NCBI GenBank assembly: GCA_963825505.1
Contig: CAWGTL010000018.1
Span: 66,137 to 130,136 of the forward strand
Source: an uncultured Actinomycetota bacterium
GTDB taxonomy: Bacteria > Actinomycetota > Actinomycetes > Actinomycetales > CAWJMD01
DNA length: 64,000 bases
Reading direction: 5' to 3'
Positions 7,107 to 21,501 of this stretch are shown here, one piece after another (within the stretch, counting starts at the first letter, position 1; every line of letters starts with the position of its first letter). The notes beneath the pieces were generated by a model. It searched no databases. It was given only the letters and a program-made list of their open reading frames with translations, and was not told the DNA's origin. A program made the position numbers and the translations under genes.

Positions 7107-7206
7107 GCGCCCTCGCCGCCCCCCTCCATCACGCCGAGCGAGAACGAGGCGCGAGACGTGCCGGCGCGTCGCGCGCCCCGTTCACGCTCGAGGCGGGAGG
7201 GGCCCG

Positions 7207-7925
7207 TCAGGCAGGGTCGGACGCGTGCACGACGGCGCGGTCGACCACGTCGGCCATCGCGGTGTAGCCGCGGTCGTTCGGGTGGAACCAGTCGGGCGCG
7301 AGCAGGCCGACCCAGGTGGCCGGTCCGTCGCGCCGGAAGTCGGCCAGAGCGAGCGCTGCCGTCGGCCGCGCGGCGGCGGATCTCCGCGTCCATCTGCCGC
7401 ACCTCGCGCTGCGGGTTGGGCAGGTTGCCCACGACCGCAGCCCGCCGGCAGGGCGTCGAGCAGGGTGGTGAACCGCTCGACCGCGTGCTCGCGCAGCCGC
7501 CGGTTCACGATGTCGTTCGAGCCGACGAGCACGGTGACCAGCTCGGCCCGGTGCCCCAGAGCGGCCAGCCGCTCGAGGGCAGGCAGCTGCCGGTCGAGCA
7601 CGTCGTCGACCCGAGCGCCGGTGACCGCCAGGTTCACGAGCCGGTAGGCGTGGCCCTGCGCCGCCCAGCGGCCGCGCAGCTGGCCGACCCACCCCCGCTG
7701 GGGATCCGACGCGCCGATGCCCTGCGTCATCGAGTCGCCGATCGCGACCCAGAGCGGGCCGTCCTGCCGGAGCGCTTCGTCGTTCGCCTCGCGCCACGCG
7801 GCGGCGAACGGCTCGACCTGCCGCTGCACCGACCGCACCCCCGGCAGGACCCGCGACATCGCCCGCAGCACCGGCCCGGTCGGCCGCGGGCTGGTGTTGT
7901 CGTAGGTGAGGTCGCGACGGTCCAC
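7207..7925 (-). pseudogene. SGNH/GDSL hydrolase, read through two frame changes
   Basis: Block I is VAIGDSMTQG and block III is LVGSNDI, both in ORF 7182..7925. The middle part (VVGNLPNPQREVRQMDAEI) lies in ORF 7094..7432. The C-terminus with block V (DWFHPNDRGY...ASDPA*) lies in ORF 7207..8121. The shifts are near 7436 and 7357. Confidence 0.7.
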
Positions 7926-15363: not shown

Positions 15364-16047
15364 CTAGAGGTCGACGACGACGACGGTGACGTTGTCGGAG
15401 CCGCCGGCGTCGAGGGCCGCGGCGACGAGGGCGTCGGCGGCCTCGTCGACCGAGCCCGACCCGAGCAGGGTGGCGACGTCGGGGTCGTCGACCTCGCTGG
15501 TGAGGCCGTCGGTGCACAGCAGCAGCCGGCCGTGGCCGGGCAGCGAGACGGTCTGCGGCAGCGGGGGTTCGGTGTCGCCGGCCAGCAGGCAGCGGGTGAG
15601 CACGAACTGGCCGGGGTGGGTGCGCGCCTGCTCGCGGGTGATGACGCCCGCGGCCGCCAGGCGCTCGGCCTCGTTGTCGTCGACGGTGACCTGCTGCAGC
15701 CCGGCGCCGTCCAGCCAGTAGATGCGGCTGTCGCCGACGCCGCCGACCGTCACCGCGTCGCCGTCGAGGACCGCCACGACGAGGGTGGTGCCCATCCGCG
15801 CCAGCGCGGCGTCGCCGTCCGCGCCACCGGTGACGGCGGCCGAGGCCGCGCGGAACGCCTCGGCCGGGTCGCCCGACGCCGCCAGGGCGTCGTGCGCGGC
15901 CTGCGCCGCCAGCCGGCTCGCGACCTCGCCGCCGTGGTGGCCGCCGAGGCCGTCGGCGACGACCCAGGCGGTCTCGGACACCACGTGCGCGTCCTCGTTG
16001 CCGTCGCGCACGTGGCCGACGTGGGTGCGGGCAGCGACCTCGGGCAC
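15364..16047 (-). CDS. PP2C-family Ser/Thr protein phosphatase
   Basis: Motifs THVGHVRDGNEDA, VADGLGGH and CTDGL...GGSDNVTVVVVDL. I placed the start at GTG 16047, because the rest of track ORF 15364..17160 is a GC-driven extension. Confidence 0.85.
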   Translation of the reverse strand: MPEVAARTHVGHVRDGNEDAHVVSETAWVVADGLGGHHGGEVASRLAAQAAHDALAASGDPAEAFRAASAAVTGGADGDAALARMGTTLVVAVLDGDAVTVGGVGDSRIYWLDGAGLQQVTVDDNEAERLAAAGVITREQARTHPGQFVLTRCLLAGDTEPPLPQTVSLPGHGRLLLCTDGLTSEVDDPDVATLLGSGSVDEAADALVAAALDAGGSDNVTVVVVDL

Positions 16048-16106
16048 CTGCGAACCGTAGCCGACCGCGCCCGTCCGGCTCCGTCGCGGCCGGACGGTCC
16101 ACCCGG

Positions 16107-16550
16107 TCAGTGGTGCGCGTGCACGACAGCGTGCCCCCGTCCGCGGGAGATCATCGCCCGGTTGACCGGCACCGTCACCACGAACGCGACGGCGAGGGCG
16201 AACGCCAGCGAGCCCCAGAACAGCGGGCTCGACAGGCCCGCCTCCATCGCGCCGGGCACCGCGAGCAGGACGCCGTTGTCGACCAGCTCCATCACGGCGA
16301 TCGAGAGCGTGTCGGCCGCCAGCGCGACCGGCAGCGCCTGCCGGAACGTCAGGCCCGAGCGCAGCAGCGGCAGCATCGTCAGGGCGTAGCCGAAGACGAA
16401 CGCCAGCCCGACGGCCAGCGCGATCGTCGCCGCCCCGTGCCAGCCCAGCGCCGTCCCGATCACCAGACCGAGCACCTCGCCGATGGCGCACCCGGTCAGG
16501 CAGTGCAGCGTCGCCGTGACCGCCATCCGCCAGCTGCTGTCCATGTCCAT
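16107..16550 (-). CDS. DUF4396-type small integral membrane protein
   Basis: 147 aa from ATG 16550 (MDMDSSW...), with about four TM segments and the conserved HCLTGCAIGE motif. Confidence 0.7.
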   Translation of the reverse strand: MDMDSSWRMAVTATLHCLTGCAIGEVLGLVIGTALGWHGAATIALAVGLAFVFGYALTMLPLLRSGLTFRQALPVALAADTLSIAVMELVDNGVLLAVPGAMEAGLSSPLFWGSLAFALAVAFVVTVPVNRAMISRGRGHAVVHAHH

Positions 16551-16571
16551 CGCTCCTCGTCGCTCTCCAAG

Positions 16572-16588
16572 ATACCCCCGGGTGGTAT
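16572..16588. promoter_or_regulatory. Candidate CsoR/RicR-type operator (ATACCCCCGGGTGGTAT)
   Basis: A near-palindromic 17-mer, AT-flanked with a GC core, lies 22 nt upstream of the DUF4396 start. It matches TACCC-N5-GGGTA with one mismatch. Confidence 0.4.
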
Positions 16589-16706
16589 ATGGCGCCAACA
16601 GGGCGAGGTCGGAGGGCATTCCCGGCGCCGTCCGGGCGTTCTTCCTGCGTACGCTCGCCGTGACCAGCCGCGAGCGGTCGGTCGGCGACGTGCAGGAGGA
16701 GGTCCC

Positions 16707-17006
16707 ATGGCCCGGTGCGAGCACCTGGAGGCGGCGCCCGCGCAGGCACAGCAGCCCACGACGCCGGACGGGTGCGCGGAGTGCCTCGCGGACGGCGGGC
16801 GGTGGGTGCACCTGCGGCTGTGCCTGACCTGCGGCCACGTCGGCTGCTGCGACTCCTCGCCGGGCAAGCACGCCAGCGGCCACCACGCGGCCACCGGGCA
16901 CCCCGTGATCGCCTCGTTCGAGCCGGGGGAGACCTGGCGCTGGTGCTTCGAGGACGAGGTCGGCGCCGACCCGGGCGCCCGCCCCGCACGAGAGGGCACT
17001 GAGTGA
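16707..17006 (+). CDS. UBP-type zinc-finger domain protein
   Basis: ATG 16707 is preceded by RBS aggagga. The Cys/His pattern is CEHL...CAECL...HLRLCLTCGHVGCCDSSPGKHASGHH. Confidence 0.8.
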   Translation: MARCEHLEAAPAQAQQPTTPDGCAECLADGGRWVHLRLCLTCGHVGCCDSSPGKHASGHHAATGHPVIASFEPGETWRWCFEDEVGADPGARPAREGTE

Positions 17007-18679
17007 CCGGGTCCCGCGCCGGAGCGCGGCCTGTGCTCCTCACCGTGGACGACGACGCCGCGGTCTCGCGCGCCGTCGCGCGCGACCTGCGGCGCAAGTA
17101 CGGCGAGCAGTTCCGGGTGCTGCGCGCCGACTCCGGCCCGCAGGCGCTCGAGGCGATCAAGGAGGTCGCGCTCCGCGGGGAGCAGGTGGCGCTGATCCTG
17201 GCCGACTACCGGATGCCGGTGATGAACGGCATCGAGTTCCTCGAGCAGGCGATGGACCTGGTCCCGGACGCGCGCCGCGTCCTGCTCACGGCGTACGCCG
17301 ACACCGACGCCGCGATCTCGGCGATCAACCTCGTCGACGTCGACCACTACCTGGTCAAGCCGTGGGAACCGCCGGAGGAGAAGCTGTACCCGGTGGTCGA
17401 CCAGCTGGTGGCGCTGTGGTGCAGCACCGTGCGCAGCGGGCGCAGCGAGATCAAGCTGCTCGGTCACCGCTGGTCGCGGCCGTCGTTCGAGGTGCGGGAC
17501 TTCCTCTCCCGCAACGGGGTCCCGTACCGCTGGTACAGCGTGGAGGAGCCGGAGGGGCAGCGCCTCCTCGCGCTCGCCGACGCGACGCCCGAGGACGTCC
17601 CCGTCGTCGTGGACCTCGAGGGCGAGGTGCTGCGGCGCCCCACCACGGCCGAGCTCGCGCAGGCGGTGGGGATGAGCACGCTGCCCAGCGAGGACTTCTA
17701 CGACCTGGCGATCATCGGCGCCGGCCCGGCCGGGCTCGGTGCGGCGGTGTACGGCGCCTCGGAGGGCCTCACCACGGTCGTCGTCGAGCGGCAGGCCCCG
17801 GGCGGTCAGGCCGGGCAGAGCTCGCGGATCGAGAACTACCTGGGCTTCCCCGACGGCGTCTCGGGCAGCCAGCTCACCGACCGCGCGCGCCGGCAGGCGC
17901 TGCGGTTCGGCACCGAGATGCTCTCTGCCAGAACGGTCACCGAGCTGCGCACCGCCGGTCCGAAGAAGGTCCTCACCCTCGACGACGGCACGCAGATCTC
18001 CGCCCACGCGGTGGTGCTGTCCACCGGGGTGGCCTACCGCGAGCTCGACGCCGACGGGGCAGCGGACCTCGTCGGACGTGGCGTCTACTACGGGTCGGCG
18101 TCCACCGAGGCCGAGGCATGCGTCGGCCGGCACGTGGTGGTCGTCGGCGGCGCGAACTCCGCCGGCCAGGCGGCGGTGTTCTTCGCCCGGCACGCCGAGA
18201 AGGTCACGCTCGCGGTGCGCGGGCCGGACCTGCGCGCCTCGATGTCGCACTACCTGGTGGAGCAGATCGCCGGCATCGACAACATCGAGGTGCGCACCTG
18301 CACGGTCGTCGCGAGCTGCACCGGCGAGGACCACCTGGAGTGCGTGACGCTGCACGACGTCTCCACCGGCGAGGACCAGGTGATCGACTGCGCCCACGTC
18401 TTCGTCTTCATCGGCGCCGCCCCGCTCACCGACTGGCTCCCGGACGAGGTGCTGCGCGACAGCAGCGGGTTCGTCCTCACCGGCCCCGACCTCGTGGTCG
18501 ACGGAGCCACCCCGGCACCGTGGCCCCTGGACCGCGACCCCTATCTGCTGGAGACGAGCGTCCCCGGCGTGTTCGTCGCAGGTGACGTCCGCGCCGCCTC
18601 GGTGAAGCGGGTCGCCTCCGCCGTCGGCGAGGGCGCCCTGGCCGTCACCCTCGTGCACCGCTACCTCGGAGAGTTCTGA
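17003..18679 (+). CDS. Fused response regulator / thioredoxin-reductase-like FAD-dependent oxidoreductase
   Basis: The GTG start overlaps the upstream stop (GTGA). The REC domain has LLTVDDD, the phospho-acceptor in ILADYRMP, and YLVKPW. The FAD motif is IIGAGPAGLGAA and the NAD(P)H motif is VVVGGANSAGQAA. The TrxR CATC site reads SAST. Confidence 0.85.
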   Translation: MTGSRAGARPVLLTVDDDAAVSRAVARDLRRKYGEQFRVLRADSGPQALEAIKEVALRGEQVALILADYRMPVMNGIEFLEQAMDLVPDARRVLLTAYADTDAAISAINLVDVDHYLVKPWEPPEEKLYPVVDQLVALWCSTVRSGRSEIKLLGHRWSRPSFEVRDFLSRNGVPYRWYSVEEPEGQRLLALADATPEDVPVVVDLEGEVLRRPTTAELAQAVGMSTLPSEDFYDLAIIGAGPAGLGAAVYGASEGLTTVVVERQAPGGQAGQSSRIENYLGFPDGVSGSQLTDRARRQALRFGTEMLSARTVTELRTAGPKKVLTLDDGTQISAHAVVLSTGVAYRELDADGAADLVGRGVYYGSASTEAEACVGRHVVVVGGANSAGQAAVFFARHAEKVTLAVRGPDLRASMSHYLVEQIAGIDNIEVRTCTVVASCTGEDHLECVTLHDVSTGEDQVIDCAHVFVFIGAAPLTDWLPDEVLRDSSGFVLTGPDLVVDGATPAPWPLDRDPYLLETSVPGVFVAGDVRAASVKRVASAVGEGALAVTLVHRYLGEF

Positions 18680-18680
18680 G

Positions 18681-20132
18681 ATGGATCCGTCGACCCTGTC
18701 CCGCAAGGTCACCCTGGACGAGCTGCGCGGCCTGTTCCTGTTCGAGGCGCTCGACACCGACCAGCTCGCCTGGCTGGTCGAGCACGGTGGCGTCGAGGAG
18801 CGGCACGCCGGCGACGTCGTCTACGGCGAGGGCCAGCCGGCCTCCTGCTTCTTCGTCCTCATGGACGGCACGCTGTCGATGACGCGCACCGTGCAGGGCG
18901 AGACGATCGAGATCACGCGCACCAACCAGCGCGGGGTCTACTCCGGTGCGACCACGGCCTTCGTCACCTCGGGCAAGGAGTCGCTCTACCAGAGCAGCCT
19001 GCTGGCGGTCACCGACTGCACCTTCTTCGTGCTCGACTCCGAGGACCTCGGCACCGCCATGCGCGGCTGGTTCCCCATGGCCATGCACCTGCTCGAGGGT
19101 CTCTACCTCGGCATGCGCCGCAGCAGCTCGATCATCGGCGAGCGGGAGCGCCTTCTCTCCCTCGGGCGCCTGTCCGCCGGACTCACCCACGAGCTGAACA
19201 ACCCTGCGGCTGCGGCCGTCCGGGCTACGTCGTCGCTGCGCGAGCGCGTCGCGAAGATGCGGCACAAGCTCAGCGCCCTCGCCTCCGGCCACGTCGACCC
19301 GGACGTGCTGGTGCGGCTGGCGACCGCCCAGGAGGACGCGATCGAGCGCAAGGCGAAGGCACCCGAGCTGACGCCCGTGCAGACCGCCGACGCCGAGGAC
19401 GAGCTCGGCGACTGGATGGACGCCCGCGGCATCGGCAACGGCTGGGACCTCGCCCCGATCCTGGTGGCCGCCGGCATCGACACCGAGTGGCTCGACGGTC
19501 TCGCCGGCGACCTCGACGAGCAGATCCTCGCGTCCGGGCTCGGCTGGATCGCCTACGCCCTCGAGACCGAGATGCTGATGGACGAGATCGAGGACTCCAC
19601 CGACCGGATCTCGAACCTGGTCGGCGCCGCGAAGCAGTACTCCCAGCTCGACCGCGCGCCGTTCCAGCAGCTCGTGGTGCACGAGGGGCTGAAGAGCACG
19701 CTGGTGATGCTCGCCCACAAGATCCGCGAGGCCCACGTCGAGGTGGTCAAGGACCTCGACAAGGACCTGCCGGCGGTCCCCGGGTACCCCGGCGAGCTGA
19801 ACCAGGTCTGGACGAACCTGGTGGACAACGCGATCGGCGCGATGCCCGACGGCGGGACGCTCACGCTCAGGTCGCGGCTGGACGGCGAGTGGGTCGTCGT
19901 GGAGGTCTGCGACACCGGCAGCGGCGTGCCGCCTGAGCTGCGGACGAAGATCTTCGAGCCGTTCTTCACGACCAAGCCCACCGGCAGCGGTACCGGGCTC
20001 GGGCTCGACATCTCCTACCGGATCGTCACCCAGCGGCACGGCGGGTCGCTGTCGGTGGAGTCCGAGCCGGGGGACACCCGGTTCGTCGTCCGGCTTCCCC
20101 TGCGCGAGGCCCCGTCCGTCGCCACCGCCTGA
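18681..20132 (+). CDS. Histidine kinase with an N-terminal cyclic-nucleotide-binding-like domain
   Basis: It starts 1 nt after the upstream stop. There is a cNMP-like beta-barrel region (LFEALDTDQLAWL...FFVLMDGTL). The H-box is LSAGLTHELNNP, the N-box VWTNLVDNAIGA and the G-boxes DTGSGVP and GSGTGLGL. Confidence 0.85.
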   Translation: MDPSTLSRKVTLDELRGLFLFEALDTDQLAWLVEHGGVEERHAGDVVYGEGQPASCFFVLMDGTLSMTRTVQGETIEITRTNQRGVYSGATTAFVTSGKESLYQSSLLAVTDCTFFVLDSEDLGTAMRGWFPMAMHLLEGLYLGMRRSSSIIGERERLLSLGRLSAGLTHELNNPAAAAVRATSSLRERVAKMRHKLSALASGHVDPDVLVRLATAQEDAIERKAKAPELTPVQTADAEDELGDWMDARGIGNGWDLAPILVAAGIDTEWLDGLAGDLDEQILASGLGWIAYALETEMLMDEIEDSTDRISNLVGAAKQYSQLDRAPFQQLVVHEGLKSTLVMLAHKIREAHVEVVKDLDKDLPAVPGYPGELNQVWTNLVDNAIGAMPDGGTLTLRSRLDGEWVVVEVCDTGSGVPPELRTKIFEPFFTTKPTGSGTGLGLDISYRIVTQRHGGSLSVESEPGDTRFVVRLPLREAPSVATA

Positions 20133-20136
20133 TTCG

Positions 20137-21501
20137 TCAGCTGCGGCGGTCCTGGCCGGGGACGGTCGCGGGGGCGAGCACCTCGGACGGGCCGACCGCG
20201 AACTCGTCGAGCTCGGTCTCGATCCGCTCGGTCTCGCGCTTCTTCCACTCCCGCACGGCCTTGCCGGCGAGGTCGACCTGCGCGTCGAGCACGGCCTGGG
20301 CGGTGCGCACCTCGGCGTCGAGCTGGGTGGCCGAGCGGGCCTTGGCGGCCTCGAGCGAGGCCTGGGCGACGGCCATCGCCTCGGCGTGCTCGACGTCGAG
20401 GCGGAGCTTCGCCCGGGTGACGCCGCGGTCGTCCTCCATCTGGGCGAGCGACTCGTAGAGCGTGGGCTTGGTGAGCGCCAGCAGGGTCTTGAAGAAGATC
20501 GGGAGGCACTCGATCGCGGTGAGGAACAGGAACAGCAGGATGTGCGCGAACTGCAGGATCCAGCTGTCCGCGGTCAGCCGGTGCAGGGCCTCGAGCCGGG
20601 CGAGCAGGCCGTCGTTGCTCTCGGTGGTGGCGTCGTGCGCGGCCACCTCGGCGGTGCGCTTGCGCTCGGCGTCGGCCACCTGGTCGGTGAGGTCGTCGAC
20701 CCGCGCCTGGTTGGAGATCGCGGCCTGCTCGGTGGAGGTGGCCACGGACTGGCGGACCTCGGCGGTCTTGGCGTCCAGCGCCGCCTGCAGGCGCGACACC
20801 TCGCCCGCGAGGCGGTCGCGCCGGGCCTGCTTCTCCTCGAACGCCGGGCCGGCGCCGATCACGCCGGAGCCGCAGGTGCCGTCCTTCTCGCAGGCGACCT
20901 CCTGCTCGGCGGCGTTGTAGTCGATGGTCACCTGCGCCAGCTGCGCGGTGAGCGCGGCGACCTCGGGGTTGGCGGACACCGAGTCGGCCGGGGCACCGGC
21001 GGCGATCGCGAGCTGGAGCTCGGAGATCTCGGCCTTCTTCTCGTCGATGTCGGAGAAGCGCGGGTCGGCGTCGAGCCGGGTCTCGAACGCCTCGAGCTCC
21101 TCGGTGTGCATCGCGATCAGCTCGGAGTCGATCTCGGCCTTGAAGATCTGCAGCGTCAGCGGGGTCGAGACGACCAGGCCGATCACGACCGCGAGGACCA
21201 CCCGTGGCGCGGCCAGCGCCAGCGTCGCCTTCTTGGAGGAGAGGCGGGGCGTCGAGGTGATCAGCCAGCGGTCGAGGTTGAGGATCGCCAGACCCCACAG
21301 CGCGCCGAGGACGCCTGCCAGCCACGGGGCCACGTCGAGCGCCATCCAGAGCGCGAGCGCACCGGCGACGGCGGCGAGGGCGGCGGTGGTCAGCAGCGTG
21401 CCTCCGAGGCTCGCCTGCTTGGCCAGGTCGCGCGGCGCGTGGTCCAGCACGGCACGGTTCGAGCCGGCCACCGCGAGCAGGAAGCGGTTCACGGGGTTCA
21501 C
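20137..21501 (-). CDS. DUF4407 domain-containing membrane coiled-coil protein
   Basis: GTG 21501 (VNPVNRFLLAVAGSNRAVLDHAPRDLAKQASLGG...) is a typical DUF4407 N-terminus. The protein has two N-terminal TM segments, a long Ala/Glu/Gln-rich coiled coil, an internal TM hairpin (WILQFAHILLFLFLTAIECLPIFF) and a second coiled coil. Confidence 0.75.
   Translation of the reverse strand: MNPVNRFLLAVAGSNRAVLDHAPRDLAKQASLGGTLLTTAALAAVAGALALWMALDVAPWLAGVLGALWGLAILNLDRWLITSTPRLSSKKATLALAAPRVVLAVVIGLVVSTPLTLQIFKAEIDSELIAMHTEELEAFETRLDADPRFSDIDEKKAEISELQLAIAAGAPADSVSANPEVAALTAQLAQVTIDYNAAEQEVACEKDGTCGSGVIGAGPAFEEKQARRDRLAGEVSRLQAALDAKTAEVRQSVATSTEQAAISNQARVDDLTDQVADAERKRTAEVAAHDATTESNDGLLARLEALHRLTADSWILQFAHILLFLFLTAIECLPIFFKTLLALTKPTLYESLAQMEDDRGVTRAKLRLDVEHAEAMAVAQASLEAAKARSATQLDAEVRTAQAVLDAQVDLAGKAVREWKKRETERIETELDEFAVGPSEVLAPATVPGQDRRS

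Follow-up and report, generated by a model that had tools for sequence, protein, structure and literature searches.

A response regulator whose glutaredoxin-like and thioredoxin reductase-like output lacks both cysteine pairs, and the soluble histidine kinase encoded beside it in an uncultured actinomycete

What can a response regulator do with an output built like thioredoxin reductase (TrxR) from which the redox-active cysteines are missing? This question is raised by a three-gene locus of an uncultured Actinomycetota bacterium (GenBank assembly GCA_963825505.1, contig CAWGTL010000018.1), located in a stretch of 64,000 nucleotides (positions 66,137 to 130,136 of the contig; G+C ~73%) that is referred to below as the window. 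Three plus-strand open reading frames (ORFs), at 16707-17006, 17003-18679 and 18681-20132, encode a UBP-type zinc-finger (zf-UBP) protein, the response regulator and a histidine kinase, respectively. These coordinates are the same as in the original prediction, which was made by a model from the sequence alone and which took the regulator for a phosphorylation-controlled flavin sensor or effector. We found that CxxC pairs are absent from the TrxR-like domain and from a glutaredoxin-like domain preceding it in all family representatives that could be aligned at these sites, yet the cofactor motifs are kept. The reading we prefer, at a probability of roughly 0.45, is that the regulator may be a phosphorylation-gated NAD(P)H flavoenzyme with a non-disulfide acceptor, which would act in a wholly cytoplasmic two-component system. 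The features of the regulator gene are as follows.

17003..18679, plus strand: response regulator of 558 residues, with REC, glutaredoxin-like and TrxR-like flavoprotein domains (Pfam, NCBIfam and PDB matches, AlphaFold (AF2) model, Foldseek)
17033..17374, plus strand: REC receiver domain, residues 11-124 (Pfam Response_reg, alignment A1)
17444..17674, plus strand: mycoredoxin/NrdH-type glutaredoxin-like domain, residues 148-224 (AF2 topology, profile A3)
17471-17485, plus strand: WSRPS at the CxxC position, residues 157-161 (alignment to WCGYC of 2LQO)
17693..18676, plus strand: TrxR-like two-Rossmann flavoprotein domain, residues 231-558 (Pyr_redox_2, TIGR01292, PDB, Foldseek)
17711-17746, plus strand: FAD motif GxGxxG (conserved motif)
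17825-17851, plus strand: RIENYLGFP motif (conserved motif)
18080..18109, plus strand: GVYYGSASTE loop, residues 360-369, in place of the TrxR redox-active GVSACATCDG (HMMER, MAFFT)
18140-18175, plus strand: NAD(P)H motif GGANSAGQAA (conserved motif)
18572-18592, plus strand: GD motif (conserved motif)

The identity of the flavoprotein domain is clear. Over its entire length (residues 231-558) it can be aligned with solved TrxRs (phmmer E to 5e-42; 26-33% identity), and Foldseek matched the AF2 model to solved TrxRs with E down to 5e-29. The domain has the same two-Rossmann FAD/NAD(P)H fold as TrxB (E. coli 1TDE/1F6M, M. tuberculosis 2A87/9XUB, M. mazei 4ZN0) and shares with it the motifs GxGxxG, GGQ, ENYxGFP, ATG, GGxNSA and GD. 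Unlike TrxB, the regulator family has (Y/F)YGAxxxEA instead of CxxC, and REC and glutaredoxin-like domains are added at the N-terminus; the score against the TrxB model TIGR01292 (222.4 bits) is also below the equivalog cutoff (343.45). In HMMER alignments to solved TrxRs, GVYYGSASTE lies opposite GVSYC-AICDG, and MAFFT alignment with E. coli TrxB agrees with this placement; the TrxR loop consensus at this site is GV-S-(A/Y)-C-A-x-C-D-G. A CxxC at a shifted site, or a substitute pair of cysteines, was ruled out, as the pattern C..C does not occur anywhere in the regulator and C373, C439 and C447 are conserved solely in the clade of the window. For example, C373, in an EAC just past the loop, is invariant in this clade (n=62), and the corresponding column of the family is mostly A, M, L, Y and other residues. 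Thus, the reading of the redox-active site as SAST, with no cysteine pair, was upheld, as was the assignment of a TrxR-like output with FAD and NAD(P)H motifs, with two caveats (GGANSA and VRG) described below.

To define the family, one representative per 50%-identity cluster was searched in a set of 1.84 billion proteins, and the best 150 matches were used. None of the 131 representatives with an alignable loop had CxxC at the TrxR-like site. Instead, the loop follows the motif G[VI][YF]YGAxxxEA, and GV[YF]YG is present in 85 of the 131; the Glu of this motif lies where E. coli TrxB has, after its second Cys, the acid-base Asp. The cofactor motifs GxGxxG, GGQ, IxNYLGFP, ATG, GG(G/A)NSAGQAA and GDVR show conservation of 75-90% or more among the cluster representatives, which suggests a working site rather than a decaying pseudoenzyme. 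Two cofactor motifs of the regulator differ from their usual form. GGANSAGQAA is found in the clade of the window and GGGNSAGQAA in the wider family, and the TrxR motif HRRxxxR for the 2'-phosphate of NADPH reads VRGPDLR in the regulator (18212-18235).

The linker between the REC and TrxR-like domains had been described as a glutaredoxin/ArsC-type fold with WSRPS at its CxxC position. The glutaredoxin-type fold and the WSRPS site stood up to analysis, with one refinement: judged from sequence profiles and the model, the linker is of a mycoredoxin/NrdH-like rather than ArsC-like type. Residues 150-221 are predicted by AF2 to have the topology beta-alpha-beta-alpha-beta-beta-alpha. The lone linker sequence matched Pfam Glutaredoxin weakly (E 0.12), and a profile built from 37 diverse linkers of the family (A3) matched mycoredoxin-1 (Rv3198.1, PDB 2LQO) with E 2.8e-9 over residues 4-78, followed at lower rank by NrdH (4FIW, 1H75), glutaredoxin and N-terminal domains of GST. 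In this alignment W-S-x-x-S is opposite W-C-G-Y-C. Like mycoredoxin-1 and NrdH, the linker has this topology and the conserved Pro of the LPVV motif; unlike them, it is embedded in a multidomain protein and WCGYC is replaced by WSRPS. CxxC was found at this site in none of 141 family representatives, Cxx[ST] in 7 and at least one Cys in 11. The domain is thus glutaredoxin-like in topology and profile similarity and lacks the active-site CxxC/CxxS.

A similar arrangement, a thioredoxin-fold domain covalently N-terminal to a TrxR-like core, is known from the AhpF fusions (1HYU, 4O5Q). Foldseek aligned the full-length model with AhpF over 559-595 columns, and TIGR03140 and TIGR03143 gave partial matches; the score for the AhpF model TIGR03140 was 161.9 bits, far below its cutoff (502.9), which places the regulator outside this family. 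At its N-terminus AhpF carries tandem thioredoxin folds, and it has a CxxC there as well as in the TrxR-like part. Unlike AhpF, the regulator has one glutaredoxin-like fold, no redox cysteines in either domain, and a REC domain. NrdH-type redoxins are substrates that are reduced by TrxR, so an ancestral fusion of the two would have been a self-contained disulfide relay whose halves were both later stripped of thiols. With both CxxC pairs replaced (by WSxxS and (Y/F)YGAxxxEA), the present module would be unable to carry out dithiol-disulfide exchange.

At its N-terminus the protein has the sequence characteristics of a two-component response regulator. Pfam matches were Response_reg (51.5 bits, residues 13-124) and Pyr_redox_2 (117 bits), and the catalytic set of the receiver, comprising D17, D18, the phospho-acceptor D68 (nucleotides 17204-17206), T96 and K119, was invariant in A1, an alignment of 62 sequences. 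The receiver is nearest to those of HD-GYP-type regulators (NF053512, 102.6 bits; PDB 2RJN). REC is joined to an enzyme-type output in CheB, RpfG-type REC-HD-GYP and PleD/WspR as well, and the output is phosphorylation-gated in those systems; unlike in those proteins, the output here is a flavoprotein. None of the three proteins of the locus was assigned to a named equivalog in NCBIfam, and relatives of the regulator carry the public annotations "thioredoxin reductase (NADPH)" or "FAD-dependent oxidoreductase". The combination of REC with thioredoxin reductase has been called "Mycobacterium-like" in the census of archaeal two-component systems by Galperin et al. (PMC5847659). In the passages of the census that treat this class, the window regulator has the architecture given and nothing sets it apart, so the locus is a further member of a catalogued, uncharacterised class; the same passages are silent on cysteine loss, a glutaredoxin-like domain, a cNMP-type kinase and zf-UBP. 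Orthologues at 58-68% identity were found in Mycolicibacterium, Nocardia, Streptomyces and other genera.

The third gene of the locus encodes a protein with the H-box His and the catalytic-domain boxes that define histidine kinases. In this protein a cyclic nucleotide (cNMP)-binding-like barrel precedes a dimerization and histidine phosphotransfer (DHp) domain and a catalytic and ATP-binding (CA) domain.

18681..20132, plus strand: soluble histidine kinase of 483 residues, with cNMP-like barrel, DHp domain with helical insertion, and CA domain (Pfam, AF2, Foldseek)
18720..19058, plus strand: CAP/cNMP-binding-like beta-barrel, residues 14-126 (Pfam cNMP_binding, 36 bits vs cutoff 27.5)
18933-18962 and 18984-19010, plus strand: degenerate phosphate-binding cassette, GVYSGATTAF and LYQSSLLAV (alignment with CRP and PKA RI-alpha)
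19185..19205, plus strand: H-box THELNNP with the phospho-accepting His170 (Pfam HisKA residues 161-189; invariant in alignment A2)
19290..19517, plus strand: four-helix domain of ~75 residues, residues ~204-279, inserted in the DHp hairpin (AF2)
19665..20105, plus strand: HATPase_c catalytic domain with N/G1/F/G2 boxes (Pfam, 93.4 bits)

The kinase had been predicted to have no transmembrane segment and to carry a barrel with a degenerate cassette, and we found both to be the case. There is no hydrophobic stretch (the highest Kyte-Doolittle value of any 19-residue window is 1.15), and AF2 predicts the beta-barrel at residues 36-119 (mean predicted local distance difference test score (pLDDT) of the kinase model, 77.1; of the regulator model, 78.9). 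The barrel passes the gathering score of PF00027 and lacks the intact phosphate-binding cassette of that family, in which Gly-Glu and Arg-Ser/Thr contact the ribose and the cyclic phosphate: in comparison with CRP and PKA RI-alpha, FGE of the cassette is changed to YSGA, such that Gly-Glu becomes Gly-Ala, and the cassette Arg is Tyr. As these substitutions are conserved in 106 family kinases, loss of the Glu and Arg is family-wide and canonical binding of cAMP or cGMP is unlikely. The boxes THELNNP, NLVDNA, DTGSGV, FEPFFTTK and GTGLGL are all present and invariant in the kinase alignment A2. The HisKA score was 18 bits (cutoff 26.9) and the first 30 HisKA positions alone were matched, because an inserted domain splits the DHp hairpin. 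This domain, which follows the H-box helix and precedes DHp helix 2, consists of helices 207-225, 232-248, 254-263 and 268-277 (pLDDT 82-91). Family-wide conservation extends to it (W245, W255, G265, W289), and it had no match in Pfam. Foldseek matches of the kinase were confined to standard DHp-CA cores (HK853, ZraS and others). Relatives of the kinase are annotated publicly as "ATP-binding protein".

For the gene neighborhoods, one genome of each GTDB species was scanned with a pattern, which gave at least 597 loci that encode relatives; the best 80 were analyzed. These belong to six phyla, namely Actinomycetota (Streptomyces, Micromonospora, Amycolatopsis, Nocardia, Rhodococcus, Mycolicibacterium and other genera), Cyanobacteria, Chloroflexia, Planctomycetota, Acidobacteriota and Bacteroidota. 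In 79 of the 80 loci the regulator has, no more than 4 kb away, a gene for a full-length homologue of the cNMP-like kinase, and in 73 this gene is directly 3' of the regulator on the same strand, with gene ends mostly overlapping or nearly abutting. Regulator and kinase are a conserved unit, and it is on this synteny that their proposed cognate pairing is based. A zf-UBP gene was found within 4 kb in 35 loci from three phyla, including Chloroflexia and Planctomycetota genomes, and was absent from 45 (56%). Its position varied: it was 3' of the kinase in 29 of the 35 loci, upstream on the same strand in 4 (the order seen in the window) and upstream but divergent in 2. That the linkage recurs despite shuffled gene order suggests a functional tie. 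Hence, of the triad noted originally, the regulator-kinase pair was confirmed, and the zf-UBP protein is a recurrent yet optional partner. Leaving aside regulator, kinase and their alternative reading frames, no neighbor recurred in more than about 14 of the 80 loci in a stop-to-stop ORF clustering, which is noisy at G+C of 70% or more.

The best 150 family matches comprise both REC-fused and cNMP-fused forms, and many representatives of ~550 residues match query residues 143-557 alone. In all nine such paralogues that were tested (P0148, P0170, P0180, P0196, P0202, P0208, P0215, P0232 and P0239), an N-terminal cNMP_binding domain replaces REC, and the remainder is the same glutaredoxin-like/TrxR-like module. 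In P0125, REC comes first, then the module, and a cNMP domain stands at the C-terminus. Occurrence of the module behind two classical input domains, REC and cNMP, favors a regulated effector over a sensor, so that, of the two roles proposed originally, effector appears the more probable one.

These features can be combined as follows. The barrel of the kinase, having lost its cyclic-phosphate residues, would most likely bind another small ligand; the kinase would then autophosphorylate at His170, and Asp68 of the neighboring regulator would receive the phosphate from it. The output is not DNA binding but the glutaredoxin-like/TrxR-like fusion, probably a former self-contained disulfide-reductase relay, which is predicted to bind FAD and NAD(P)H. 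This flavoenzyme may oxidize NAD(P)H and pass the electrons to O2, to a quinone or another small molecule, or to a metalloprotein, and phosphorylation of REC would switch its activity, probably because the glutaredoxin-like domain and the NAD(P)H domain would be packed differently on the flavin. In the cNMP-fused paralogues, ligand binding at the cNMP-like domain would gate the module instead of REC. The zf-UBP protein may be a zinc-containing accessory that is not present in every such system.

Several observations weigh against such a flavoenzyme. The GGANSA and VRG variants imply that coenzyme preference may differ from that of TrxR, and leave room for doubt even about nucleotide binding. 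Residues 265-287, which contain RIENYLGFP, and residues 531-538 are conserved and close to the flavin, but have pLDDT below 50 in the AF2 model. No neighboring gene that would hint at the electron acceptor was conserved across the 80 loci in the noisy clustering, and a full-text literature search, in which coverage of subscription journals was thin, returned the census mention (PMC5847659) and no functional study of the family. In addition, a module without turnover could explain part of the data. In that case, rotation between the TrxR-type flavin-oxidizing (FO) and flavin-reducing (FR) states of an FAD- and NAD(P)H-bound pseudoenzyme would report the NAD(P)H/NAD(P)+ ratio or the oxygen state, and the output would be protein-protein contact, e.g., with zf-UBP or the inserted helical domain of the kinase, or feedback on REC phosphorylation. 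We consider a redox switch of this kind rather unlikely, though it accounts for some observations well. Retention of both relay domains together without their cysteines would make sense if docking, and not chemistry, were used; the TrxR-like part of the AF2 model is nearest to TrxRs in the FR conformer (5mh4, TMt 0.85; 3cty, 0.83), as compared with TMt ~0.65-0.70 for most FO-state structures; no acceptor gene was conserved nearby; and the zinc-finger protein, a small one, is found repeatedly as a partner. However, the CxxC loop has not degenerated: the motif in its place is new and strongly conserved, with an acidic residue where TrxR has its acid-base Asp, as if the active site had been remodelled. 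In addition, an upstream-fused REC or cNMP domain usually serves as the input by which an effector is controlled, and the zf-UBP gene is missing from more than half of the loci.

A more specific possibility is a TrxR-type ferredoxin/flavodoxin-NADP+ oxidoreductase (FNR), similar to YumC, that would be placed under two-component control, with NADPH on one side and an iron-sulfur or flavin protein on the other as its partners in electron exchange. Solved TrxR-type FNRs (B. subtilis YumC 3LZW, C. tepidum 3AB1, T. thermophilus 2ZBW) are detectable relatives of the regulator and likewise have the TrxR fold without CxxC; as flavoenzymes that depend on NAD(P)H, they work with an acceptor other than a disulfide, and this possibility is in fact a special case of the preferred idea. 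Nevertheless, it appears improbable. Comparison with both groups, which had been proposed as a check on the original prediction, placed the regulator much nearer to true TrxRs (E 5e-42) than to FNRs (6gas/8c16, 8e-20; 3lzw, 5e-16; 3ab1, 3e-13), with CxxC not retained. A C-terminal segment caps the flavin in the TrxR-type FNR family. In contrast, the regulator has no such extension, its C-terminus (...VHRYLGEF) being that of the last TrxR helix, and its loop motif is also different. Moreover, no ferredoxin or flavodoxin gene was conserved nearby in the 80 loci, subject to the same noise in clustering.

Finally, it is highly improbable that the module is still a thiol/disulfide reductase acting through C373, a low-molecular-weight thiol (e.g., mycothiol, an actinobacterial thiol) or the Cys-rich zf-UBP protein, since, in spite of the invariance of C373 in the clade of the window (n=62), the similarity of the glutaredoxin-like domain to mycoredoxin-1 above all and the 8 Cys of the zf-UBP protein, C373 is not conserved in the family, no C..C is present in the regulator, Cys is lacking at both glutaredoxin-like active-site positions (and is rare there in the family), the family extends beyond Actinomycetota, and the zf-UBP cysteines fit the zinc-ligand pattern of their fold and come from a gene that most loci lack.

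The zf-UBP protein and the sequence preceding its gene have the following features.

16707..17006, plus strand: zf-UBP zinc-finger protein of 99 residues with 8 Cys (Pfam zf-UBP, 49.8 bits vs cutoff 22.7)
16694..16702, plus strand: Shine-Dalgarno-like AGGAGGAGG, 4 nucleotides 5' of the zf-UBP ATG at 16707 (read from the sequence)

The protein has the Cys/His zinc-ligand pattern of PF02148. A solved bacterial homologue, 2IDA (a "hypothetical protein"), is close (phmmer E 2.3e-27, residues 17-90, same Cys/His ligand pattern), and the eukaryotic zf-UBP domains of HDAC6 (5G0F), USP16 and USP49 are distant (E 5e-4 to 4e-3). About 8000 homologous protein clusters of 85-125 residues were found, and the closest homologues elsewhere (60-73% identity) occur in unrelated gene contexts, twice beside Na+/H+ exchanger genes. 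For example, zf-UBP proteins with 69-73% identity are encoded away from the two-component system in L085 and L086 (5001-5264) and L087 (5001-5258). An Na_H_Exchanger gene adjoins zf-UBP in L087 and is located ~2.3 kb away, with two genes between, in L085 and L086. Many zf-UBP proteins of 85-125 residues are labeled "CPA1 family monovalent cation:H+ antiporter" by JGI and many "ubiquitin carboxyl-terminal hydrolase 14" by NCBI; "UBP-type zinc finger domain-containing protein" is also among the public labels. The antiporter and hydrolase names look like annotation errors. A variant of the protein is encoded 3' of the kinase in L014-L062 (Streptomyces, Nocardia and Rhodococcus, ~7120-7470), in which the last zinc-ligand Cys is gone (WFWNY vs WRWCF) and a Pro-rich C-terminal tail (...GPELAPP..HP.DQ.PGP.GRVP.DW) is conserved. 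The regulator and kinase were also examined for a free C-terminal Gly-Gly, the ligand of the eukaryotic domains: neither protein ends in Gly-Gly, and this is alike in loci with and without zf-UBP.

By their packing the three genes are an operon, as the earlier reading of a GTGA overlap (17003-17006) and a 1-nucleotide gap (18679/18681) had implied. The zf-UBP stop TGA at 17004-17006 overlaps the GTG at 17003, which is the earliest possible start of the regulator: an in-frame TGA (17000-17002) lies immediately 5' of it, and GAGG is located 7 nucleotides upstream. An alternative start, GTG 17033, is the one called in P0001, a homologue with 90% identity. The P0001 locus also keeps the GTGA overlap and, in the ten codons between both GTGs, the decapeptide MT(G/E)SRAG(A/G)RP; 4 of 6 nucleotide changes in this stretch are synonymous, and R-P before the first strand is kept in the family consensus N-terminus of the regulator (alignment A1). 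These features together favor the start at 17003. The kinase ATG (18681) lies 1 nucleotide past the regulator TGA (18677-18679), with GGAGAG 7 nucleotides upstream. In a scan of 16400-20400 no sigma-70-like promoter was detected, and weak terminator-like hairpins alone were found, all within coding sequence. On the 5' side, a DUF4396 membrane-protein gene (16107-16553) and, behind it, a PP2C phosphatase gene (15364-16050) are divergent on the minus strand; on the 3' side, a convergent DUF4407 gene (20137-21501, minus strand) ends 4 nucleotides from the kinase stop. These flanking genes recur in the 90%-identical locus L001 and not in more distant loci. Paralogues of the zf-UBP, regulator and kinase genes were not found elsewhere in the window.

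REC-TrxR-like regulators are thus listed in a census, and the locus described here offers handles on their function. These are the loss of both CxxC pairs with retention of the cofactor sites, a dedicated soluble kinase with a non-canonical cNMP-like sensor, a one-component version of the flavoprotein module, and a bacterial zf-UBP protein as a frequent genomic partner. Our searches turned up no earlier work that combines the family-wide loss of both cysteine pairs, the mycoredoxin-like linker, the dedicated degenerate-cNMP kinase carrying a DHp insertion, the one-component paralogues and the zf-UBP linkage. The system is present in Streptomyces, Nocardia, Mycolicibacterium and Nostoc and is tractable, so that a new regulated flavoenzyme activity could be sought in it; it could also give bacterial zf-UBP proteins a first functional context. 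With regard to origin, we tentatively suggest, as a possibility open to considerable doubt, that the module arose from an NrdH/mycoredoxin-TrxR fusion that lost its four redox cysteines once, at an early stage, was adapted to a new flavin chemistry or signalling use, and became an output of both two-component and one-component pathways. If true, this family would represent a new class of signal-regulated flavoprotein effectors, in which bacterial zf-UBP proteins would act as adaptors.

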